A DNA stretch of 64,000 nucleotides from Gemmatimonadales bacterium (GCA_035517615.1 DATIYM010000035.1:1493-65492); one strand, 5' to 3'; shown: positions 1 to 11,962, numbered from the stretch's first letter. Program-made: numbers and translations. The notes: generated by a model not told the origin, from the letters alone.

Positions 1-1166
1 ATAGTGGGCATTTCAGCCCAATACGCATCTGAGAAGCCACTGACCATCCCGTTGTTGCCCGCGGCGATTACCAACAGCGGACTCGTTCCGGCTGTGCGGA
101 TGGCAAGCGCTACTACCGAGTCTGTCCGTCGCACGTCATCTCTGAAGCTCGCGCTATCGCCGGAGTCCAGGCCGCCAGCTTGCTTCACGCCAAGAGAGAT
201 GTTTATGACCTGCGCTCCCCACGCAGCGACTGACGCGATCGCGTTCGCAAACAGAAAGGTCGAGACATAACTGTTGCCATTCGCGGTAGGCACAATCACT
301 CCGCCGACGGTGTCACGAGCTGTCACGTCGAACAGATTTAGTGACGCATTCCACATCATGCCCGTCATTCCAGAACCGTTCCCTCCAACCGCAGCGATCA
401 AACCGGCGACCGCGATCCCATGTTCGAAGGTGTCGACGGCGACAGAGAGCGAGTCGGTCTCTACGGCAACGTTGGGATCTAGGTCAAATGCACTGTGGAA
501 ACCCAAATCGATCACACCGATCTTCACATTTGAACTCCCCGTGGTACAGCCCCAGGCGAGCGGAGCGGCGATAGCTTCAAACGCCCACCTTGGATCGGCG
601 GTGGGATTCGAGTACGCGCTCTCAGGATGAACCTTCCAGTCTAGTCGATGCCAGCCACCGCCGTCGTCTGGTCGCTGATATGTCGCAGGATCCGTGATGA
701 CAAGATCCGGCATAGCAAGACGCACCCCCGGGAGCCGTTGCACTTTCGCTGAGGCGGCGAACACGCGCTCGTTCGTTTGATCTGGCGGGATTCGCACCAT
801 GTACACGGTATTGGAGCGTCCGAGCGGCACGCCCCCAATGACTTCTCCTTGAATTGAGTCGATGGCCGCTTGTCGCTGCCTACCGGAGGCTGTCTGACTG
901 AAGACAATACCAATCACATCTTTGTAGAAAGAATGCGTTGAGCGGTGACGATTTCTAACCAGATTCGATGCGGCATAATATCCGCGGGGCATGCCGCGGG
1001 GCGGGTGCACCATTTCCGTGGCGTTCCGAGGAGGGGCTACCGGAGAATCGTCAAAGAGATCGCACCCCACCGCAACGGCTACCATGACCAACAGCCCGCT
1101 CAAGATCCAGCGCAAGGGTCCAGCGCGTCGGTGTGCGTCCGGTGCGGGCGTTACAGAGTCATTCAT
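1..1166 (-). CDS. S8 (subtilisin-like) serine peptidase, lipoprotein precursor; 3' end runs off the window
   Basis: Own minus-strand translation (absent from the ORF track because there is no stop in the window). It reads MNDSV...LLVMVAVAVGC (lipobox), Asp motif VKIGVIDLGF, His motif HGIAVAGLIAA and oxyanion motif LLVIAAGNNG. The catalytic Ser region lies left of position 1. A GAGG lies just upstream of the ATG at 1166. Confidence 0.85.
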   Translation of the reverse strand, partial: MNDSVTPAPDAHRRAGPLRWILSGLLVMVAVAVGCDLFDDSPVAPPRNATEMVHPPRGMPRGYYAASNLVRNRHRSTHSFYKDVIGIVFSQTASGRQRQAAIDSIQGEVIGGVPLGRSNTVYMVRIPPDQTNERVFAASAKVQRLPGVRLAMPDLVITDPATYQRPDDGGGWHRLDWKVHPESAYSNPTADPRWAFEAIAAPLAWGCTTGSSNVKIGVIDLGFHSAFDLDPNVAVETDSLSVAVDTFEHGIAVAGLIAAVGGNGSGMTGMMWNASLNLFDVTARDTVGGVIVPTANGNSYVSTFLFANAIASVAAWGAQVINISLGVKQAGGLDSGDSASFRDDVRRTDSVVALAIRTAGTSPLLVIAAGNNGMVSGFSDAYWAEMPT

Positions 1167-1188
1167 CGCCTCAACCTTCCTTCGGTTG

Positions 1189-1740
1189 CTACCGCGTGGA
1201 GTTGCAGGAAATTGTTACGAGAGAATCTCGAAAGAGGGGGAGCCTAGAATCCGTCGCCACCTTTACGATACTGACGGGGGTTGTGACCTCTGCGGGAATT
1301 ACGCAACCCGGCCCAGGTACGACCAGCCGTTCAAATACAGTGAGACCGTGCCTGCTGCGCGCAGTGGAGTCAACAATGATTTCTCCAGCCGAGAAACCCA
1401 TCGCAGCCACAATCACCATTTCGTCCTGAAAGTTGATCTGAGGTTTCTTTGGCGGTCGTTGACCATAGGGTGCGACAACCTCTGCCCAAAGCATTTGGAA
1501 CGCGCTGGAGTCCTTTGCTACGGCGCGGAGTGCATGTCGAATTCCGGAGGCTCGGTCCTTGAAGAGAACTACCAGCGTGTCATGTGTGCCGGGCGCTAAG
1601 TCAGCCCGCGGCGCGATTCCTTGAGCGACGCTCCTTGATTGGGTTGTCTCGCGATGCGAGTCGTCGACCACTGGCTTGAGATTTACTAGTGTAAGCGCCG
1701 CAAGAAGACTCACGCCGACCGCAGCGTCGTATCTAGTCAT
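1189..1740 (-). CDS. hypothetical secreted protein, co-directional with and 22 nt upstream of the S8 peptidase
   Basis: Track ORF 1189..1881, trimmed to the internal ATG at 1740 (residue 48), which is preceded by GAGGAG. The N-terminus MTRYDAAVGVSLLAALTLV looks like a signal peptide. No recognisable domain. Confidence 0.5.
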   Translation of the reverse strand: MTRYDAAVGVSLLAALTLVNLKPVVDDSHRETTQSRSVAQGIAPRADLAPGTHDTLVVLFKDRASGIRHALRAVAKDSSAFQMLWAEVVAPYGQRPPKKPQINFQDEMVIVAAMGFSAGEIIVDSTARSRHGLTVFERLVVPGPGCVIPAEVTTPVSIVKVATDSRLPLFRDSLVTISCNSTR

Positions 1741-1835
1741 GGATTCTCCTCTCGCACGCACGAAGTTGGCGCGCTCAGGTCTTTTGGGAATACCAGAAGG
1801 TTGCATCGAACCACCCATACCCGTCGACAGAAAGA

Positions 1836-2702
1836 TTGCACGCGTGCAACGTTCTGACCCGACTAGGTGAACACCTAGCACATCTCTTCATCGCATGTTA
1901 CTTCTTGGCCCTGAATTACCGAGCTATTCCCGGGAGGCGTGTGATCCCAAGCGTAAGGCGCGCGGCTGTCGGTGCAGGTTTCGAGGGCACGTTTCTGGCT
2001 CTTGCGCCGCCGTATGCGTCCCTTCTTCCGCTTCCAGCGGTCGATGACGGAGAATCTTTGCCGCTTGGCGCGGTTGTCATCGGGTCGGGCAACGAATTAC
2101 TTGAGACACTAACTGCCCTTATGCAGCTCACATGTTCGTCTCCTTGGATTGTCCCATGTATAACGCTCGCTCCTAAACAGGGACCGCTGGAACCACTCCT
2201 CGCTCTTGTAGGCGGGCTTCGACCCAGGCTCGTGGTCGTGAGTGGAGTAGAGACGTCGCGACGCAAAGACCTAGTAACGACCATCCTTCGAGGAACGAGA
2301 AAAAGAGTGCCACCTGCGCCGTCAATCATGGCCGGATGGGTGACGCAACGAGCCAGGGTTTCCGAACTCGCCCGACCCTTATCAGCCCAATTCGATGCTG
2401 CGCTTCGCCCCCGTGGCGATGTACCCGCGAGCCCTAGCGCGTCCACATATAGCCGACTGTTTCGACGACACGGGCCCTTCACCGCGAGGGATTGGCGCGC
2501 TATTGCTCGTCTCTGTTGGCATGCGCATGCGCTATCGGCTGCTGCTTCTAACGAAACCTCGGGCGCACAATTGCCCATGCGTACTGTTGCGCGACACGCG
2601 GCCCAGTATCTCCAGATGTCGCATCTCGCCTTGCGTCGATACATCGGTTGGGAATGGGTTTTGGAAGCGGCCCTGCGCGTGGGTGGATATGTGTCGCGGT
2701 GA
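1836..2702 (+). CDS. hypothetical protein (weak call; start uncertain)
   Basis: This 288-aa ORF has more protein-like composition than its antisense partner 1916..2644. The C-terminal helical segment RTVARHAAQYLQMSHLALRRYIG could be an HTH. No motif recognised. Confidence 0.3.
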   Translation: MHACNVLTRLGEHLAHLFIACYFLALNYRAIPGRRVIPSVRRAAVGAGFEGTFLALAPPYASLLPLPAVDDGESLPLGAVVIGSGNELLETLTALMQLTCSSPWIVPCITLAPKQGPLEPLLALVGGLRPRLVVVSGVETSRRKDLVTTILRGTRKRVPPAPSIMAGWVTQRARVSELARPLSAQFDAALRPRGDVPASPSASTYSRLFRRHGPFTARDWRAIARLCWHAHALSAAASNETSGAQLPMRTVARHAAQYLQMSHLALRRYIGWEWVLEAALRVGGYVSR

Positions 2703-2843
2703 AGTGTGACCTCCAGTGTGACGTAGACGTTCGAATTTCGTCACGCACCCCTGGTGCTCACCTCCTTTCCTCCCGATTCTACGGCATTCCTGAAGCCCGG
2801 GGTCGGGAATCGGCCCTAGCGCGCTACGACTTTAGTCCGTAGG

Positions 2844-3540
2844 TCAGAGGTGGTTCCGCTTCTTTGTACAGCGCAGCGGGTCGGATAATTGGATGAGCAG
2901 GCATGTTACGCATGCCACCTGGTGGGGCCGCGGGGTGAAATAGGCTTCGGCCGGGGTCTGATCCGCGAGACTCGAGTGCGGCCGGGCGGTGTTGTACTGG
3001 GTGAGGTAGCGGCCCAGGCCAGCTTTGGCCTCGGACACCGAGGCGTAGGCGTGGAGATAGACTTCCTCGTACTTGATCGAGCGCCAGAGGCGTTCGACGA
3101 AGATGTTGTCCTTCCAGCAGCCCTTCCCATCCATGCTGATCGCGATGCCGTGGTCCTGGAGCATCCCAGTGAAGTCGGTGCTGGCAAACTGGGCGCCCTG
3201 GTCCGTATTGAAGATCTCCGGCTGGCCATAGCGAGCGAGCGCTTCTTCGACGGAGCAGCCGGCGCAGCAGCCGCGCCCCGGCATAGGGGAAGTCGAGATG
3301 CAGCGCATCGAGCCGCCGCATCAGTGCCAGGTCCGCGTCGGCCATGGGCCGCCGGCACGTAGTACACGCTGCCCCGAGTGACGCCCAAGGCGCGGGCCTG
3401 CCGCGCGATGGCAATGGGTGAGTCCGGTCGATCATCGCTTGGCGCTCAGCCACCCGGCCTTGGTGAGCGCGCGTTCTAAAAAATCATTCTCGAGCGTCAG
3501 CTCGCTGATCTTGGCGTGCAGGGTCTTCACATCGATGGTC
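2844..3540 (-). mobile_element. IS3-family insertion sequence remnant (transposase fragments, frameshifted and internally deleted)
   Basis: Three frames carry classic IS3 pieces. The OrfA end reads [23 protein letters not shown]. The OrfB N-terminus reads LGVTRGSVYYVP and ADADLALMRRLDALHLDFPYAGAR. The rve/DDE C-terminus reads EIFNTDQGAQFASTDFTGMLQDHGIAISMDGKGCWKDNIFVERLWRSIKYEEVYL...YNTARPHSSL. The central part of the catalytic domain is missing. Confidence 0.8.
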
Positions 3541-3593
3541 GGCCCGGGCGCGCGGCCCTCGGCGAAGACTGCCGCAAGCAGATGCGTGGCAAC

Positions 3594-4711
3594 GGGCTCA
3601 TGCAGGCAATCGCCCGCGTGAACCGCGTATACAGCGACAAGCCGGGTGGGCTCGTGGTGGATTACCTCGGCCTCGCCCATGAGCTGAAGCAACCGCTCGC
3701 GACGTACACGGAGAGCGGTGGGACCGGCAAGACTGCGATCGACCAGGCGGAAGCAGTCGCCTTGATGCTTGAAAAGTACGAGATCTGCTGTTGGCTTTTC
3801 CACGGCTTTGACTGGTCGAAGTGGTCGAGAGGAACACCGGCAGAACGTGTTTCACTCTTGCCCGCGGCCCAGGAGCACATCCTGGCACAACAGGACGGGA
3901 AGAACCGCGTCTTGCAAGCGGTGCTCGACCTCTCGCGTGCATTCGCGCTGGCTGTGCCGCACGACGACGCTCTGCGGATTCGCGACGATGTGGCCTTCTT
4001 CCAGGCGGTACGGGGCAGCCTTTGCCAAACGGGCTCCGGGCGCGGCTCGATCTGACGAGGACCTCGATTTGGCAGTGCGCCAGATTGTCTCGCGCGCCGT
4101 CGTGTCCGGCGGCGTCGTTGACATCTTCGAGGCCGCCGGCCTAGCCAAGCCGGATATATCGATTCTGTCCAAGGAGTTCCTGGCGGAGGTGAAGGACATG
4201 CCTCAGCGTAACCTCGCTGTGGAGCTTTTGCGGAAGCTGCTATCAGGAGAGATCCGGACGCGGCGTCGCAAGAAACGTCGTTCAGGCCCGCTCGTTCGCG
4301 GAGATGCTGGATTTGGCGTTACGGCGTTACCAAAACCGTGCGATCGAGGCCGCCCAGGTCATCGAGGAACTGATCGAACTAGCGCGCGACATGCGAGAAG
4401 CCGAGCGTCGAGGGGAAAACCTAGGCCTCACAGAGGACGAATTGGCATTCTACGACGCGCTTGAGACCAACGACAGCGCGGTGAAGGTCTTGGGTGATGA
4501 GAACCTCCGGATGATCGCGCGGGAGCTGGTCCGCACCGTGCGCGAGAACGTCACGATTGACTAGACGGTCCGCGAAAACGTGCGTGCCCAACTCCGCGTA
4601 CTCGTGAAGCGCATTTTGCGGAAGTACGGCTATCCGCCCGACAAACAAGAACGGGCAACGCAGCTGGTGCTGGAGCAGGCAGAGGTGTTGTCGGAGGCGT
4701 GGGCGGCGTAG
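3594..4711 (+). pseudogene. hsdR: type I restriction enzyme R subunit (HsdR), C-terminal fragment only, with 2 frameshifts and 1 in-frame TAG
   Basis: Helicase motif [12 protein letters not shown] is followed by [28 protein letters not shown] and [18 protein letters not shown] (frame of 3516..4055). [12 protein letters not shown]...[27 protein letters not shown] follows in frame 3769..4464. [23 protein letters not shown]...[13 protein letters not shown]...VTID follows in frame 4304..4564. A TAG sits where homologues have W, and the frame then reads [27 protein letters not shown] to a stop at 4709-4711. The N-terminal ~700 aa are replaced by the IS3 remnant. No hsdM or hsdS is nearby. Confidence 0.85.
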
Positions 4712-4722
4712 CGATCTGCACG

Positions 4723-5685
4723 CTACACCGGGAATGCTGTTGAGACACTTTGATCTGTCGCGAAGAGCGCCGCAAAACCAGGGTTGAGTATCGCCTTCCT
4801 CAGGATGCCTCGAACGAGACCCTCTAACTTGCGGTAAACGGCCTTGGTTGGTTCATCCATCGCCACCAGCGCGAGAGCGTGAACAAGATCGGAACGCTTC
4901 TCGTACATTGCTCGGAGATCCGGTTCACTTACAGCGAACGAAGCGTCCAGCTGGCCAATTGCGGCGAGACGACTGACGAACGCTCGCGTCGAACCGATCG
5001 GTGCGCCCTTCTTGTCCTTCTCGTTCTTGATCCTAACCAGCGATTCTAGTCCAGTTACCAGCAGCGGCCATCGGATGTCACTGTAGTAGTTCCTCGCCGC
5101 CATTTCGTGATGCCATAACGCCACTCCGACCCTCTTCGGAATTGTTGTCGGATTCCAAGCTTTGATCAGATCGGCAATGGCAGGGATATCAGAAGGAATC
5201 AGCCAGTTCTCGTTGACGTCGAGGACAAACGCATGTTCACCGATGCCGGCTTCCGTATGGGGCACTAGTTGCCATTGGCCCCGAGGTTTCCCCCACGTCC
5301 TAATCTGAGCGGAATGACCAAGGCACAGGGAAGTCGGATGAACAAGTCGTGACAGGGCTATAGCGTTGCGCAACCGGGTGTCCGGGTCGAAATCGCCCTG
5401 ATCCGCCTTTGAAGCGGGAGGGTTGGTTCGGATGAAGGCGTAACCACCGGGGAACTGGCGAGTCGGAACGTAGTTACGGCCAGGGGGTTCAGTCCCGTCT
5501 AGCACCCATTTTGTTAGCTCCTCGTCCAGCATTCCGACCCACAGGTCGCCGTCGATTTGGACGGGCTTGTCGCAGTACACAACGGCTCTCGTCGACTTGG
5601 CGTCGTGGTCGACGTAGGGCCACTCCACCATCGAAAGGTCGGTAGTGGTGTTCTGAATCTCGAAGTATGTGAACCTCTGAGCCAT
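4723..5685 (-). CDS. hypothetical protein with C-terminal HEPN-like R-x4-H motif
   Basis: Clean 320-aa ORF whose ATG lies 4 nt after the upstream gene's stop. The C-terminal helical region carries YEKRSDLVHAL (R-x4-H at 4879-4896). The N-terminal two thirds are unrecognised. Confidence 0.7.
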   Translation of the reverse strand: MAQRFTYFEIQNTTTDLSMVEWPYVDHDAKSTRAVVYCDKPVQIDGDLWVGMLDEELTKWVLDGTEPPGRNYVPTRQFPGGYAFIRTNPPASKADQGDFDPDTRLRNAIALSRLVHPTSLCLGHSAQIRTWGKPRGQWQLVPHTEAGIGEHAFVLDVNENWLIPSDIPAIADLIKAWNPTTIPKRVGVALWHHEMAARNYYSDIRWPLLVTGLESLVRIKNEKDKKGAPIGSTRAFVSRLAAIGQLDASFAVSEPDLRAMYEKRSDLVHALALVAMDEPTKAVYRKLEGLVRGILRKAILNPGFAALFATDQSVSTAFPV

Positions 5686-5689
5686 TGCC

Positions 5690-6190
5690 TTAACGGGTTC
5701 TCTGCGACTTGGAATTCCTGATTAGCACTGCCGCGCGACGCAGCGCCCGGGCAAACTCGGCTACGGTCGAAGTCGACCTCGCGCCGATCCTGAACAAGCC
5801 GACGACAGTTGGGAACCCTTCGAATGTACGCCTCGTCAATGATCCCTCTGTTATGGGCGAACAGGTGTCGCGTCGCCTCACAGTCTGCCATAAGGTCGGC
5901 CGTTGCTGCATCGAGATCGCGACCAGTTGTCTTGAGAATGTGTTTGCGGACCGCTGTGGTTAAGCCGCCACTGAGGTCAATGTTTTGGCTCTTGGCAAAT
6001 GCTTCAAACGCGCCTTTGAAGCGCAACAACGGAGACCCCCGGCCATGAACCTGTAGTCACCCTCGGCGTCGTGATGCGGGAACAAGAGATCGTACAGCTC
6101 GTCCGCAAAGGCCTTATCAAAGAATGCGACGCCTCCCTTAAGCCACTGTACCGGGACGTCGCCATCGTATGTTGGGTCGTCTCTCACCAT
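5690..6190 (-). pseudogene. small HEPN-like protein gene split over three reading-frame segments (two single-base frame breaks, possibly assembly artefacts)
   Basis: Three segments: 6190->~6040 (MVRDDPTYDGDVPVQWLKGG...DYRFMAGG), ~6036->~5815 (SPLLRFKGAFEAFAKSQ...CEATRHLFAHNRGIIDEAYIRRVP) and ~5812->5690 (TVVGLFRIGARSTSTVAEFARALRRAAVLIRNSKSQRTR, then stop). The breaks sit at a C5 run (6036-6040) and a G3/C3 run (5811-5818). The repaired product is ~166 aa with R-x4-H at 5853-5870. Confidence 0.55.
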
Positions 6191-6232
6191 GATTTCCGCA
6201 TTCGCGAACCCATCGTCGAAGCGACTGGCCTC

Positions 6233-8164
6233 TCAGAAGTTCAAGGCCACACGCCAGTCTGAACCTCTGATTGCATGTGGGCAAGTCGCACCAAGCTCCG
6301 CAATGAAGGGGCTGGCAGCTAACCGCGCGTATGTCTCGCCTGAACTTCTCCGAACTTGAAGCGGCGGAATGTTGGCTCGTAGCGCCTGAGCCAACGGCAT
6401 TTGCGTCACCGAGCTGAGGACTAGGGTGTCTTTCGGCCGCGTGACGGCGACGTAAAACAGGCGTCGCTGTTCCCGAAGTTCGAGGTCCTGCCCGGCTGGC
6501 GTCAGCTCTGTATCCACGGTTGGAATTGCTCCTCCAACGCATCCAGCAATTACCACCAGCTCCGCAGTCAGTCCCTTTGCCTTATGAAGGCTCATTATCC
6601 GGATGACGTCGCCAGCCGAGTCGGGTAGCTCGGGCTGAGTGATAACCTCCACTAGTCGTTGGTAGAGGTTCGTGGGCTCCGGGTTGTCTGCGGCTACGGC
6701 GCCCGCAGCGAGCCGGATTGTGAGCGTTTCCGGGTCGGCCGGGTCCCAGAGGGCGTTCACGAGGGGAGTCCCCTGAAGGCCCGCCAGAGCGGCCAACCGC
6801 CCCTTGAGCTCATCATGCTTGGCAAGAACTTTCCGAGAATACCTGACTTCGATTTCATCACGAGCCAACCGCTCACAGACGTCAAAGGGCTCAATGCCGT
6901 GCTCCTCGGCGTGACCGCGGATCCTAGCGTATCCCGCTCGGTTGCCATCGACGTCTCCCAACCCGAGCCATGCGCGGTACGCGGCTCGGTCCTCTGGACT
7001 GACGAGCAGCGTCAGGAGGCAGAACCCCTCGGCGGCAGAAACTGCGTCGAGGGCATCCTCCCAGAAGAAGCTCAAGGCATTCCGACGGCGTCGGATCAAG
7101 GCGTCCCGAATTGCGTTTCCGAAGATGCGACGCGGGCTGAGGATCAACACTTGCCCCGGTGGAAGACCATTTCGTCGATTCAAGTAGTCATCGACGTAGG
7201 CGGCAATCGTGTCCGCTTCGTCGCCGATACTCGGGTGTTGGACGACGTAGACCGAAGCAGCGGCTCGGCCAGCCTGCGATCTGAGCGGCGTCTGCCGGGC
7301 GAGTGGGTCGTGACCGAGGAGTGCATTGCTCATGGTGACAATGTTTGGAGGACACCTGCGACATTCTTCAATGGTGTGTGAACACGTGCCGGGATGGTCA
7401 TCGGGGAAGACGCGAATACCGTCAGGGTTGGCGTGCCGGAAGCGATAGATGGACTGATTGTCGTCACCAACGATGGTGAGGCTCGCATTCGTGCCGAGCA
7501 CATCAACGAGGGTTTGGTCCGCCTTGTTTAGGTCCTGGTACTCGTCGACCAAGACCGCCCGGTACGCAGGCAGGACTCCCGCATGAGGATTTGCTTGGAG
7601 GAAGCGAAGGGCTATGGGAACCAGCTCTCCAATCAACATCGCGCGATGATATCTGAGCCAATCAAGCAATGCCGCTTCGAAGTCGATGTCCCGTTGCTGT
7701 TGGGGTGCCCCGGCCACCTCATGTTGAAGGCGGGCCCAAGCCGCCTCGTATGCCTCAAGCAGTTTGGCCACTTCTCGCTTCCCACCGAACTGCTTCTTCA
7801 AGTCAGTCGTGAGTTGATCGATCTCGTATGAAAGAAGGGGTCGCGGACGACGACCGGTAGCTTGGAAGACAGCGTCCTCAAGCAGCGCTGAGAAGCACAA
7901 GGAATGAAGGGTAGTTGCGGTAACCTGGTCTGCCCCGCCGACGCCAAGCCGGCGAAGTTGCTCCTTAAGATCCCGTGCCGCGGTCCGCGTGAATGAGACT
8001 GCGAGGATCTCCTGTGGGTCCATCCCCTCTGCTAAGAGACGAGCGACACGTCGCATCATTGCTAGGGTCTTGCCGGTCCCCGGGCCAGCCAGCACGTGAA
8101 CCGGATTCCCCGGTTCGGCGGCGATCGCCAGTTGTGCGCCTTCAAGGCCTTCTCGCCAGGGCAT
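6233..8164 (-). CDS. UvrD/Rep/PcrA-type SF1 DNA helicase
   Basis: 643 aa with motif I AGPGTGKT (8066-8086), motif II LVDEYQD, motif III IVGDDNQSIYRFR, motif V SLHKAKGL and motif VI RRLFYVAVTRPKDTLVL. Confidence 0.9.
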   Translation of the reverse strand: MPWREGLEGAQLAIAAEPGNPVHVLAGPGTGKTLAMMRRVARLLAEGMDPQEILAVSFTRTAARDLKEQLRRLGVGGADQVTATTLHSLCFSALLEDAVFQATGRRPRPLLSYEIDQLTTDLKKQFGGKREVAKLLEAYEAAWARLQHEVAGAPQQQRDIDFEAALLDWLRYHRAMLIGELVPIALRFLQANPHAGVLPAYRAVLVDEYQDLNKADQTLVDVLGTNASLTIVGDDNQSIYRFRHANPDGIRVFPDDHPGTCSHTIEECRRCPPNIVTMSNALLGHDPLARQTPLRSQAGRAAASVYVVQHPSIGDEADTIAAYVDDYLNRRNGLPPGQVLILSPRRIFGNAIRDALIRRRRNALSFFWEDALDAVSAAEGFCLLTLLVSPEDRAAYRAWLGLGDVDGNRAGYARIRGHAEEHGIEPFDVCERLARDEIEVRYSRKVLAKHDELKGRLAALAGLQGTPLVNALWDPADPETLTIRLAAGAVAADNPEPTNLYQRLVEVITQPELPDSAGDVIRIMSLHKAKGLTAELVVIAGCVGGAIPTVDTELTPAGQDLELREQRRLFYVAVTRPKDTLVLSSVTQMPLAQALRANIPPLQVRRSSGETYARLAASPFIAELGATCPHAIRGSDWRVALNF

Positions 8165-8167
8165 ATG

Positions 8168-8857
8168 TCAGCTCGCGAACGGGCGAGGAAAGGAGTCAAA
8201 CTGCGGCGGCTCGTGGCCGGCGGCCAAGAAGAACTCTGGACAGAATCTGCGCAGTAGGCGGAAGCCCCCTGGGGTGAATGGCGTGAGCCAAGCGGTCTCC
8301 TCTGGTGTCATGCGAAAACCAGAAAAGGCCATTGTCAGGAGGCGCGAGGCGACATGTTGGCCTCGCATTGACGGGTGGACCCATACGTGCATCACCGCCC
8401 ATGAAGGCCCCGCTGCCGGTTCCTCGCAGGCGCGGTACTCATCCTGCTCGGCCAGCCACTCGTAACGTGCGCAGCGTTCACGACGTTCGAGCACGGTGAG
8501 TCCAACGCCACGCGAACCCTGGGCTAGCACCAACGCGTGAGCAAAGTGTTCGGGAACGATTTGATATCGATCCTCAGCATAGAAGGTTGGCTTGTCGTAG
8601 TCACCTTCGAACGGAGGCTCCTCGATAGCCCGCCGCGCGACGCGCTCTGTCCGATGACGAACGAACCTTGCAGATTCGGGCCTTACCAGAAGGACCTGCG
8701 CTCCATCAATGCCGCCCACTCTTTCGAAAAGGTCGAGGCGGCGCAGACGGACGCCATTGCGGTGTTCGTCATGGTGGATCAGGTGCTTCCTTCGAGAGAA
8801 GGCCAGCGATTCGAAGTACCTGTAGTCACACGTCGGGCACGTAGTTTGACCAGGCAT
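8168..8857 (-). CDS. hypothetical protein: N-terminal C2H2-like zinc finger plus GNAT-like C-terminal region
   Basis: 229 aa. The N-terminus reads CPTC-x14-HLIHH. The C-terminus WAVMHVWVHPSMRGQHVASRLLTMAF resembles GNAT motif A only partially. Its stop lies 3 nt before the helicase ATG. Confidence 0.6.
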   Translation of the reverse strand: MPGQTTCPTCDYRYFESLAFSRRKHLIHHDEHRNGVRLRRLDLFERVGGIDGAQVLLVRPESARFVRHRTERVARRAIEEPPFEGDYDKPTFYAEDRYQIVPEHFAHALVLAQGSRGVGLTVLERRERCARYEWLAEQDEYRACEEPAAGPSWAVMHVWVHPSMRGQHVASRLLTMAFSGFRMTPEETAWLTPFTPGGFRLLRRFCPEFFLAAGHEPPQFDSFPRPFAS

Positions 8858-9145
8858 ATGCCAATTGAGGTCGGAACCTTCAGGCTTCTGGGCGACGTCT
8901 CAAGGCGCGTCCTGCCGGCAAGGATCGCACGAGACTAGGGCGACGTCAGATTGCCCGAACGGGTTTGCCGCCACCTTCGTTGCTCCACTTCACCATGTTG
9001 TTCGCTTCAAGTTGAGCGAGATCGGCCTTGGCAAAGAACTCGCTTGCTGGGTTCAGATCGATGTAGAACGTCGAGCCGGTCCCGCGAAACGATGCATACC
9101 GCCATCGGATGAAATCTAAGGCGCTATAGCTGATTTCCTATGACA

Positions 9146-9198
9146 TTTTCCGAAGGTTTTTTCTTAGAAGTTTTTCTAACGTTTTCCCGAAGTTTTTC
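9146..9198. repeat. AT-rich block with three copies of GAAG(G)TTTTT(T)C
   Basis: Read directly: GAAGGTTTTTTC at 9152-9163, GAAGTTTTTC at 9167-9176 and GAAGTTTTTC at 9189-9198. Confidence 0.7.
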
Positions 9199-9212
9199 AT
9201 TCAAGCCGCTCT

Positions 9213-9368
9213 CTACCGGACCTTCTACCGGGTTCTCCACCGGGCTTTCCACCGGGCCTCGACCGAGAATCATGGGTCCTGCTTCGAGATGGCAAACCGT
9301 ACTGATTGCCGTACTGAAAACCGTACTGATTGCCGTACGGAAGACCGTCCGAACGACCGACCTGAACG
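9213..9368. repeat. 13-unit array with strict 12-bp phase (CYACCGGR units, then CCGTACTG units)
   Basis: Units start at 9213, 9225, 9237 and 9249 (CTACCGGAC, CTACCGGGT, CCACCGGGC, CCACCGGGC). Three degenerate units follow. Then units start at 9297, 9309, 9321, 9333, 9345 and 9357 (CCGTACTG x3, CCGTACGG, CCGTCCGA, CCGACCTG). Both sub-arrays share one 12-bp register, since 9213+84=9297. Confidence 0.8.
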
Positions 9369-9436
9369 CGTCTGCCGGAGCCAGCGGCGAAATTGTCGTG
9401 TCTCAGTAGCGCGTACCGAGCCGCCCAAGAATACTG

Positions 9437-9772
9437 GTGATCGTCGTGATGTCGCGAATACATTCCGATCGTTTGTCGAACTCATTCGCATCGCTTCGAT
9501 CCGCGCTCGCGCTGATGCCGCCTGGGACTCTGGTCCCACGCGATTGGCTGCTTGACCGTTTGTCAGGTGCTGAAGCGGCTCAGACGCCTTCGACCGCTCT
9601 CGTCGATCTCACGATCCAAGACCTGGCCAAGATGTTCGGCAAGCGCCCCTCGACGGTACGGGCCTGGGTGGAGCGGGGGGACTTCGCCGGCGCTTACAAG
9701 CTCCACGGCAAGGAATGGCGTGTCCCTACGGATTCGGTCCGCGAGTTTCAGGAGCAACAAAGGCCAAAGTAA
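9437..9772 (+). CDS. excisionase/AlpA-like helix-turn-helix DNA-binding protein (start uncertain: 9437, 9449 or 9515)
   Basis: LTIQDLAKMFGKRPSTVRAWVERGDFAGAYKLHGKEWRVPTDSVREF is a typical excisionase-family HTH. It lies upstream of the integrase. Confidence 0.7.
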   Translation: MIVVMSRIHSDRLSNSFASLRSALALMPPGTLVPRDWLLDRLSGAEAAQTPSTALVDLTIQDLAKMFGKRPSTVRAWVERGDFAGAYKLHGKEWRVPTDSVREFQEQQRPK

Positions 9773-9811
9773 GCCCTAGCCGGTCGTCCGAAACGTCGGT
9801 AGCTTACTGAC

Positions 9812-10579
9812 GTGCCCAAACGCCCCCATCGCCGCAAGAACCTAGACCTGCTGGTCCCCATCGACGGGCAGCGAGTCCGTGCCGCAATCGAATGGAAGGG
9901 TCTGAGCGTCAACGCCGCCGCGCGGACGCTGAAAATGAGCCAGCAGACACTCGACTCCATAGTTCGCGGCAATACCAAGCGCTGCTACAAGTCCTTGCGT
10001 GACCAACTCGCCCAATTGCTCGGGCGACCCGCCGAATGGCTAGGCGGGGAAACCCATCTCCAGCCCGCTCTTGCGTCTTGGGTGCCAGTGCCCGACCTGG
10101 GCTACAAGCCGCCTCTGTGGGTGGATGAGAACATGCGAATCATTCGTCCGTCGTCCGAGGGCGGCTACACGCACGCCACCGAGCTTCCTCCGCGCTACCA
10201 GCTCGCCGCTCACGATCTCTCAACGCAGATCATTAAAGCCTGGAAGCGGGATATCAGTCACAAGAACACAGAAGCCGATGCCGCCATTATGCGGCTGGCC
10301 GTCGGCCGCTGGAAGCAGAATCCGTGGGATCGCCTGACCATGCTGATTTCGCGACTCATCAGTGCCTTCTGGTGGAGACGCGCCTTCCTTAAGAATCCCA
10401 AAGTCAGCGATCAAACTGCTGATGATGAATTCGCCGTGTCAGCAGCAGCGGTGCTGGAAAGCACTCTAGAGCCCTGGATCAAAGGAAAACAGGACGTGGA
10501 CTATCAATGGCTCGGTAGTGTGCTGGAGTGGGCATCTGCCGGTTTCGGAAAACACCCTTCACCTGGAGGCCAGAAATGA
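9812..10579 (+). CDS. HTH-domain protein of the integrative element
   Basis: 255 aa. The N-terminus RVRAAIEWKGLSVNAAARTLKMSQQTLDSIVRG is XRE-like. Its stop overlaps the integrase start (ATGA at 10576-10579). Confidence 0.6.
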   Translation: MPKRPHRRKNLDLLVPIDGQRVRAAIEWKGLSVNAAARTLKMSQQTLDSIVRGNTKRCYKSLRDQLAQLLGRPAEWLGGETHLQPALASWVPVPDLGYKPPLWVDENMRIIRPSSEGGYTHATELPPRYQLAAHDLSTQIIKAWKRDISHKNTEADAAIMRLAVGRWKQNPWDRLTMLISRLISAFWWRRAFLKNPKVSDQTADDEFAVSAAAVLESTLEPWIKGKQDVDYQWLGSVLEWASAGFGKHPSPGGQK

Positions 10580-11850
10580 GCAACCGAATGAAGAAGTCCC
10601 GCATTTATTGGCGTGAACGCGGCGGTACAAAACGCGCCTACGCCGATCTACGCGATTACACGGACGTGGGCGGGAGCAGGGAACCGCTCGTCGCGCCCAA
10701 CGAGAAGCTGGCGACGTCCGATGAACCGACTGCGCAGGTGCTCCTGGGTCGCAGGCTGTCAGAGCTCGACGGCATCCGCCGGGGTCGGGCACTGCACGGT
10801 GACACCAAGCGTGTCACGCTCGACGAGTTCACCAAGACGCATCTCGACGCGAAACGGGAGTCCAAGAAGTACACCGAGCATTGGATCGAGGTCACGGAGA
10901 TGTGCCTTGAACGGGCCGCGGACTTCTTCGGTGCCAATCGCGAGCTTGCGTCGATTACGGTCACGGACGTGCGGCGCTGGGCAAGCCGTCTTCTGGAAAC
11001 GCCGAACGGCAGAGAGGGAACCATGTCGGCCAGCTCAGTGCGGCATCACTTGAGCTGCCTGTCGAATCTCTACAAGCGGGCGCGAGCCGAGCGGGTAGTG
11101 CCGTCTGGATACGATCCCGTTGGCGACTTCGACGAAAAACCGTCACCTCGGCGCGGCGAAGCAAAGTGGCTGGAGATTCACGACGCCTCCCTCTTGCTCG
11201 AAGCGGCCAGGACGTACCAGCCGGATACAGAAAAGGGCGGGTGGCGGCCCGTGCCATTCGCGTACGAGCTGATCGCGACGTTCTTGCTTACGGGGGGGCG
11301 CGAGACTGAGGTGCTTGGCCTTGAAGTGGACGACGTTTCCCTCGATCGCGGAGTCGTGACCTTCCGGCCCAACCAGTGGCGTCGTCTCAAGACGGCTTCA
11401 AGCCATAGATCGGTGCCACTGTGGCCTCAGCTCCGCGAAGCGCTCCAGCGGTACTTGGCCGAGCGTCCGCCAAGCAGACTCCTATTTCCGAGCTATCGGA
11501 CGGGTCAGGAAGCAATGCTCACCGATTTTCGGAAATTGCTCGATGCTGTGGCCATGCGAGCGGGCTGGAATGAAGGCGATATCCGCTCGAAGATGTTTCG
11601 GCACACCCACTGTGCGGTCCGGCTTCAAACGCTAGATGCTGGCGCTCCAGTCAGCGTCTACACGGTTGCCCGCGAAATGGGGCACGGCGGTGAGTCGATG
11701 GTGCGCAGGGTCTACGGGCACCTGGGCCATGTCCGTCACAGGGCTGAGGTTGTGGAGTACCGTGTCGAGCAGCACGTTGCTAAGTTAGGTGCTCGGTTGG
11801 AGAGGCTTCGTGGGCTTGGATTTGGCACCACCGTTGGCACCACGGCGTAG
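10576..11850 (+). CDS. tyrosine-type site-specific recombinase (phage/island integrase)
   Basis: Track ORF 10528..11850, trimmed to MSNRMKKS (residue 17). The catalytic set is LLTGGRETEVLGL (R), KTASSHRSVPL, FRHTHCAVRL (H-x-x-R) and GHGGESMVRRVYGHL (H...Y). Confidence 0.9.
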   Translation: MSNRMKKSRIYWRERGGTKRAYADLRDYTDVGGSREPLVAPNEKLATSDEPTAQVLLGRRLSELDGIRRGRALHGDTKRVTLDEFTKTHLDAKRESKKYTEHWIEVTEMCLERAADFFGANRELASITVTDVRRWASRLLETPNGREGTMSASSVRHHLSCLSNLYKRARAERVVPSGYDPVGDFDEKPSPRRGEAKWLEIHDASLLLEAARTYQPDTEKGGWRPVPFAYELIATFLLTGGRETEVLGLEVDDVSLDRGVVTFRPNQWRRLKTASSHRSVPLWPQLREALQRYLAERPPSRLLFPSYRTGQEAMLTDFRKLLDAVAMRAGWNEGDIRSKMFRHTHCAVRLQTLDAGAPVSVYTVAREMGHGGESMVRRVYGHLGHVRHRAEVVEYRVEQHVAKLGARLERLRGLGFGTTVGTTA

Positions 11851-11890
11851 ACCTCTCGACCGATGCGGTAAGTCGTTATCGCAACAATTC

Positions 11891-11962
11891 GCCACCGTAG
11901 CTCAGTGGTAGAGCTCTCGATTCGTAATCGAGCGGTCGTCGGTTCAAATCCGACCGGTGGCT
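11891..11962 (+). tRNA. tRNA-Thr (anticodon CGT)
   Basis: Cloverleaf read by eye: acceptor GCCACCG/CGGTGGC, D-loop AGCTCAGTGGTAGAGC, anticodon loop TTCGTAA (CGT at 11923-11925) and T-loop GGTTCAAATCC. No encoded CCA. Confidence 0.93.

Follow-up and report, generated by a model that had tools for sequence, protein, structure and literature searches.

A four-gene cluster in a Gemmatimonadales defence-type island as a probable mosaic of independent genes

Four genes that closely follow one another on the minus strand of a 64,000-nt stretch of DNA from a Gemmatimonadales bacterium (GCA_035517615.1; hereafter the window, from whose first letter all positions are counted) raise the question of whether they act together as one defence system or are separate genes that came to lie side by side. 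They run from 8857 to 4723 and comprise g1 (8168-8857), an intact gene for a 229-aa protein with a predicted zinc finger and a GNAT acetyltransferase domain of the Eco1/ESCO type; g2 (6233-8164), an intact gene for a 643-aa helicase of the UvrD/PcrA/Rep type (superfamily 1A, SF1A); g3 (5690-6223), the pseudogene remnant of a family of about 228 aa with an invariant R-x4-H motif; and g4 (4723-5685), an intact gene whose 320-aa product has two domains and belongs to an unnamed family. The initial annotation had described them as an undescribed four-gene defence operon. The four co-directional open reading frames (ORFs), the spacers that separate them (3 nt between g1 and g2, 42 nt between g2 and the broken g3 frame at 5690-6190, and 4 nt between g3 and g4) and the motif coordinates that it quoted were all found as claimed. 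The proposal of a dedicated four-gene system did not hold up against the refuting conditions named in that annotation itself, as homologues of the four genes were not co-located elsewhere, g3 proved to be truly disrupted, and a HEPN fold was not shown for either small protein. With a probability of roughly 0.78, the locus is instead a mosaic of independent, individually mobile defence-island genes that were joined head to tail by recombination.

Distribution of the four families and origin of their arrangement

The co-occurrence of the four families was surveyed by tblastn, with all four proteins, in 103 loci that all come from organisms outside the window's own strain. The helicase was found without the other three genes in 80 loci (the best 80 of its 474 relatives in species-representative genomes, all near-full-length matches), g4 alone in 14, g3 alone in four, and g1 alone in three. 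The two remaining loci (L013 and L014) held both g3 and g4, which are adjacent there, with the 3′ half of g3 intact; these loci are 91% identical to the window at the nucleotide level and are therefore not independent of it. The four genes do not constitute one conserved multi-gene defence system, and their families are separable. Among the 103 outside loci, the components did not recur as neighbours in diverse genomes, as those of a multi-gene system would, nor are all of them intact in the window, where g3 is truncated and carries three insertions or deletions (indels).

A related island (L029) was then compared with the window. Its backbone (tRNA-Thr, integrase, and helix-turn-helix (HTH) genes) is 74-78% identical in nucleotide sequence to that of the window, and the window's hsdR remnant is 88% identical to part of the convergent hsdR pieces of L029, which cover the full HsdR domain set. 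The cargo of L029 consists of a g3 homologue together with an HTH gene, a gene of 256 aa that is unrelated and, on the other strand, one of 140 aa; neither g1, nor the helicase, nor g4 is part of it. The DNA homology to L029 starts at about 6223-6224, some 10 nt past the helicase stop codon, and the tblastn match of the window's g3 begins at family residue 52, codons 1-51 being absent. In the window, whatever preceded g3 codon 52 has been replaced by the block formed by g1 and the helicase. Because this junction removes the first 51 codons of g3, the contact between the helicase and g3 is the scar of a recombination event, as opposed to the boundary of an operon. In the window's lineage, a segment carrying g1 and the helicase thus abuts g3, with about 10 nt left after the helicase stop and without the first 51 g3 codons; g3 afterwards decayed through its three indels, and g4 remained intact under purifying selection.

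These data make it most improbable that the four genes form a true defence system, one in which the zinc-finger GNAT protein and the UvrD helicase would sense or process nucleic acid, two HEPN RNases would serve as effectors, and g3 would have been damaged only recently. The tight co-directional packing, the defence-island setting, and the invariance of R-x4-H in both small-protein families would all agree with such a system. So would the helicase-g4 neighbourhood suggested by an 87% relative (L015, GCA_040960765.1, positions 1-60), in which helicase codons 9-19 are followed by 22 nt and then by the start of g4. However, the families do not co-occur outside the close relatives of the window, g3 is the only one of the four genes present in L029, the helicase-g3 junction cuts away 51 codons of g3, and all three assemblies of the region show g3 to be dead (see below). 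The arrangement in L015 reflects either the loss of the helicase and g3 in a deletion of 2.4 kb or chimerism of the contig; as the helicase codons run straight into g4 there, g4 would have been kept where the helicase and g3 were lost.

The manner in which g1 and the helicase arrived could also be explained by a rare two-gene module, made of an ESCO-like acetyltransferase and a UvrD helicase, that was inserted as a unit beside a separate g3/g4 module. Compared with L029, both genes are gained together, the boundary of the insertion falls just past the helicase stop, and only 3 nt separate the two genes. A module of this kind is nevertheless unlikely: no g1 homologue was found within 6 kb of the helicase in any of the 80 helicase loci, none of the three g1 loci contained a helicase, and both families have many different neighbours.

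The g3 remnant, the intact g4 and the HEPN question

Members of the g3 family (P0034-P0037 and 112 representative clusters retrieved by an exhaustive HMMER search) have lengths of 223-230 aa and can be aligned over their whole length. The protein of about 166 aa that had been obtained by repairing two single-base frame breaks is thus not full length, since residues 1-51 are missing, and the ATG at 6190 corresponds to an internal methionine of the family. The two breaks themselves, placed at 6036-6040 and 5811-5818, were replaced by three indels when the DNA was aligned with L029 and L013 (alignment A6): a 2-nt deletion at 6033/6032, a 1-nt insertion in the A-run at 6015-6017, and a 2-nt deletion at 5768/5767. 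Three reading frames are needed to read through the window's g3, and positions 5811-5818 fall within the sequence IRRVPNCRR, which every g3 homologue reads in frame.

Assembly error was considered as the source of these breaks and was ruled out. A 4201-bp region containing the g3 lesions is 100% identical in three separate assemblies (L020, L021, and L022; one each from ENA, JGI, and Logan) produced by different pipelines, and the lesions are thus not assembly artefacts. The ratio of non-synonymous to synonymous substitution rates (dN/dS) in the in-frame middle of g3 was 0.05 in comparison with L013, and the inactivation is therefore probably recent. Judging from these alignments, g3 is a pseudogene that is non-functional in the window. 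In L029 (8380-8540), the g3 homologue also seems to be frameshifted, near codon 17, with MSRSPDPRDSITPGIK in one frame and EWEEFRASL in another.

The initial annotation had taken both small proteins for putative HEPN RNases because each carries an R-x4-H motif, ATRHLFAH at 5853-5870 in g3 and RSDLVH at 4879-4896 in g4. At the arginine-rich composition of these proteins, R-x4-6-H is expected by chance 1.6-4 times per protein, and it was observed five times in the helicase and three times in g1. A single-sequence occurrence is therefore uninformative, and only a family-wide invariance of the motif carries weight. Such invariance was found in both families. In g3, R170 and H175 are the sole invariant columns among 63 sequences (consensus DATRHxxVHNRG). 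In g4, Y261, R264, S265, and H269 are invariant in an alignment of 22 sequences (A3), as is an N-terminal SRLVHPT motif.

The fold itself was not shown for either protein. The g3 family reached 14.5 bits against the Pfam HEPN_Swt1 model, compared to a threshold of 27.5, and this in two of its 63 members; in an hhalign comparison with a Swt1-HEPN protein, the motif alone was aligned, with a probability of 1.5%. The hhalign comparisons with Swt1-HEPN and AbiJ proteins gave no informative match, and profile searches of PDB sequences, that for g4 included, returned nothing. A confident AlphaFold2 (AF2) model of g3 (predicted local distance difference test (pLDDT) score of 95) found no HEPN match in the PDB with Foldseek. 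For g4, Foldseek searches of the PDB and BFVD yielded nothing significant; the sole matches with local coherence were weak ones to HEPN toxins (7ae9, 7ae2, and 7ae8; E 1.1-2.8, probability 0.12-0.35, TMt 0.37-0.45). Both families thus resemble the HEPN RNases (Swt1-like, AbiJ/Abi_C, and HepT-MNT) in being defence-island proteins with an invariant R-x4-H located in helical regions, but differ from them in that no Pfam HEPN model reaches its threshold and no Foldseek match is significant. A HEPN fold is accordingly unconfirmed for g3 and g4, and for g3 it is the conserved motif that points to one.

The g4 gene is intact and rare, with only 21 homologues in 5.8 billion sequences and none in IMG/VR; its protein matched no model in Pfam, PADLOC, or NCBIfam. 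The AF2 model is a confident two-domain structure (pLDDT 89.3), with an N-terminal alpha/beta domain that bears SRLVHPT and a C-terminal helical domain that bears R264 and H269. The dN/dS values of 0.12-0.18 (0.18 in comparison with both L013 and L015) indicate purifying selection. The homologues of g4 lie in varied surroundings. One follows hsdM and hsdS in a gene row of type I restriction-modification (R-M) (L007), two follow an HTH-Peptidase_M78 gene, with or without a PIN gene, near Eco57I or DarTG (L008 and L010), and others stand beside AbiJ and AbiEi (L011), AbiEii (L013), a DCD protein (L016), or unannotated genes. BLASTP found no gene resembling g3 upstream of the g4 homologues. In L007, a 146-aa gene (6789-7229) located directly upstream of the g4 homologue encodes a putative ASCH/PUA-like protein, as recognised by eye (RQPWAWAI...GKDIENRSW). 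Acting alone, g4 may be an effector of the abortive-infection type, in which the N-terminal domain would have a sensing role and would control a C-terminal HEPN-like RNase with R264 and H269 as the catalytic pair.

It was also considered that g3 and g4 once formed a two-gene HEPN module, either as paired subunits or as a toxin and its regulator, and that the loss of g3 left g4 orphaned or deregulated. In the window as well as in L013 and L014, the two genes are neighbours 4 nt apart, and in the latter two loci the 3′ half of g3 has survived. In L029, another protein with a faint HEPN match (PF05168, E 0.06) comes after the g3 homologue. On the other hand, g4 homologues occur in eight other contexts without g3, the g3 homologue in L111 is solitary, the two families showed no relationship in profile-profile comparison (hhalign probability 0.3%), and g4 is under purifying selection in the absence of g3. 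We consider this explanation improbable.

Several observations weigh against the reading of the locus as a mosaic of independent genes. The 3-nt and 4-nt spacers suggest translational coupling and co-transcription, which would fit a functional linkage in the window's lineage. Sampling was thin for g1 (three outside contexts) and for g3 (three independent ones), and the contigs were mostly short. The retention of g3 and g4 together in L013 and L014 may reflect a lineage-specific two-gene module. Finally, the assignment of g4 to HEPN draws on its conserved motif and on a weak fold similarity (E > 1, template modelling (TM) score of 0.45), and the protein is at most a candidate member. As for the spacing, g1, g2, and g4 may be co-transcribed merely through their close packing, which does not imply a joint function; a scan of positions 4400-9500 for promoters and terminators gave no signal exceeding that of shuffled sequence.

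The acetyltransferase-like g1 and the helicase g2

The zinc-finger and GNAT-like character originally ascribed to g1 was borne out and could be made more precise, as the protein is Eco1/ESCO-like. It scored 24.8 bits against the Pfam family of ESCO1/2 acetyltransferases (PF13880), above the gathering cut-off of 22.8, and the family profile matched human ESCO2 (6sp0, E 1.7e-5) and ESCO1 (5t53, E 1e-4) in the PDB. These matches span both the zinc finger, with identical spacing (C7-x2-C10 ... H25-x3-H29), and the acetyl-CoA motif near residues 155-206. In the family alignment (A1), H25 and H29 are strictly conserved and C7 almost so; C10 is present in the window copy. Like Eco1, ESCO1, and ESCO2, g1 has a zinc finger that leads directly into the GNAT core and passes the PF13880 threshold; unlike them, it is bacterial, lies in defence islands, has no cohesin context, and is very rare. 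The locus carries no SMC gene. We infer from these profile matches that g1 is a protein lysine acetyltransferase of the ESCO type.

The g1 family has 12 cluster representatives in 5.8 billion sequences, the window's own protein included, and no relative was found in 185k species-representative genomes or in IMG/VR. One homologue (L017) has AAA_15, pPIWI-nuclease, and GIY-YIG genes as neighbours, and another (L018) an FRG gene; neither is accompanied by a helicase. In L018, a gene pair encoding a DUF5343 protein and a Swt1-like HEPN protein (3728-4914, minus strand) was observed beside the FRG gene and the g1 homologue. The literature searched held nothing specific on bacterial Eco1-like proteins.

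The description of g2 as a complete SF1 helicase of the UvrD type was likewise upheld. Its translation contains the full SF1A motif set, with Walker A GPGTGKT at 8066-8086, DEYQD, and motifs III, V, and VI. The protein matched the Pfam models UvrD-helicase (PF00580, 4.5e-40) and UvrD_C (PF13361, 5e-15), its best PDB matches were UvrD1 and PcrA at 1e-31, and among PADLOC models it matched GajB (best 4.4e-46) and RTasHel (1.2e-42). The family, of about 645 aa, is widespread, its 474 relatives being distributed over bacterial and archaeal phyla.

In about ten of the 80 best relatives, the helicase gene is found in a type I R-M operon, flanked by hsdS and hsdR. Other homologues have as neighbours FRG-HepT, AbiJ with GIY-YIG, TIR, or Mrr genes, and in some cases housekeeping genes (MutL and DinB). 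Loci with the helicase between hsdS and hsdR were seen in phylogenetically distant bacteria (L055, positions 3161-11096, and also L040, L042, L047, L052, and L045), and in L035 the helicase homologue stands next to an FRG domain fused to a HepT-like region. These results suggest that g2 is a stand-alone UvrD-like DNA helicase, often found in defence loci where it accompanies restriction, and not a partner of g3 or g4. It would probably act on invading or damaged DNA, or assist restriction. In the literature searched, nothing specific was found on a UvrD-like helicase functionally linked to, or embedded in, a type I R-M system.

Island setting, known systems and significance

The locus is variable cargo of a defence-type integrative island at tRNA-Thr, near a dead hsdR and the remnant of an insertion sequence (IS). 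The GC content is 57-61% in the first 12 kb of the window, compared to 65-69% beyond 12 kb, and both this value and the domain scans agree with the lower-GC, integrase-bearing island noticed at the outset. On the plus strand, the island backbone includes an HTH_17 excisionase-like gene (9437-9772), a gene for a 255-aa HTH protein (9812-10579), and a tyrosine integrase gene (10528-11850) that adjoins tRNA-Thr (11891-11962), where the backbone ends. On the other side of the cluster lies a degraded type I restriction gene, hsdR (3516-4712, plus strand), which is convergent on g4 and of whose C-terminal part T1RH-like_C and T1R_D3-like fragments persist in two ORFs. These frameshifted C-terminal fragments (3516-4564) are all that is left of the gene; they start beside an IS transposase (rve) remnant (2844-3308, minus strand; Pfam rve_3, 1.6e-14) that lies upstream of them. 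Neither hsdM nor hsdS was found in the window, and with hsdR reduced to frameshifted fragments the type I R-M system is thus dead here. No direct repeat of at least 12 nt of the tRNA-Thr region was detected inside the island part (the low-GC block, window positions 1-11962). The distal island boundary is probably outside the window, beyond its start.

Several known systems were compared with the locus. Gabija was rejected, as there is no GajA: g2, an SF1 helicase of the UvrD type encoded in a defence island, matches PADLOC GajB, but the window's island contains no GajA, OLD, TOPRIM, or ABC-ATPase gene, g2 is nearest in the PDB to the housekeeping helicases UvrD1, PcrA, and Rep, and the neighbours of its relatives vary. 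A helicase-associated defence-associated reverse transcriptase (DRT) system, represented in PADLOC by RTasHel, was rejected because no reverse transcriptase (RT) domain is present among the locus genes. Accessory genes can be embedded in type I R-M loci, as is PrrC in EcoprrI (PMC12707154). The position of some g2 relatives between hsdS and hsdR, the g4 homologue of L007, which follows hsdM and hsdS, and the hsdR remnant that the window locus abuts all recall such genes. The window's hsdR is, in contrast, convergent, IS-truncated, and frameshifted, and is not accompanied by hsdM or hsdS; an intact R-M-embedded module was therefore rejected for the window, where only the hsdR fragments remain.

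The earlier statement that no named system fits the locus was consistent with our scans, in which PADLOC, Pfam, and NCBIfam models matched only the helicase and, weakly, the GNAT domain of g1. As no PADLOC, Pfam HEPN, or NCBIfam model matched them, g1, g3, and g4 are undescribed; named sources annotate the locus proteins as 'hypothetical', and no description of them was found in the literature searched.

The locus is ordinary island cargo of unnamed families, in which one gene is dead and the other three are intact, move independently, and are candidates for immunity genes. Its arrangement, a patchwork that was created by recombination and includes a gene no longer functional, is typical of the turnover of defence islands, and is unimportant as a four-gene system. 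It also calls for caution, as tight spacing and single-sequence motifs such as R-x4-H can imply a system for which comparative genomics offers no support. The families themselves provide leads: the 112-cluster g3 family, in which R-x4-H holds the sole invariant residues; the rare two-domain g4 family, found near R-M, abortive infection (Abi), and toxin-antitoxin (TA) genes; the rare bacterial g1, with the architecture of eukaryotic ESCO/Eco1; and the helicase family that recurs between hsdS and hsdR. A possible, if still rather doubtful, interpretation is that g3 and g4 represent two unnamed, divergent HEPN-like families of single-gene anti-phage proteins, and that g1 is a bacterial Eco1/ESCO homologue recruited to defence islands. 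If true, this locus would offer three new candidate stand-alone immunity genes, and not one system.

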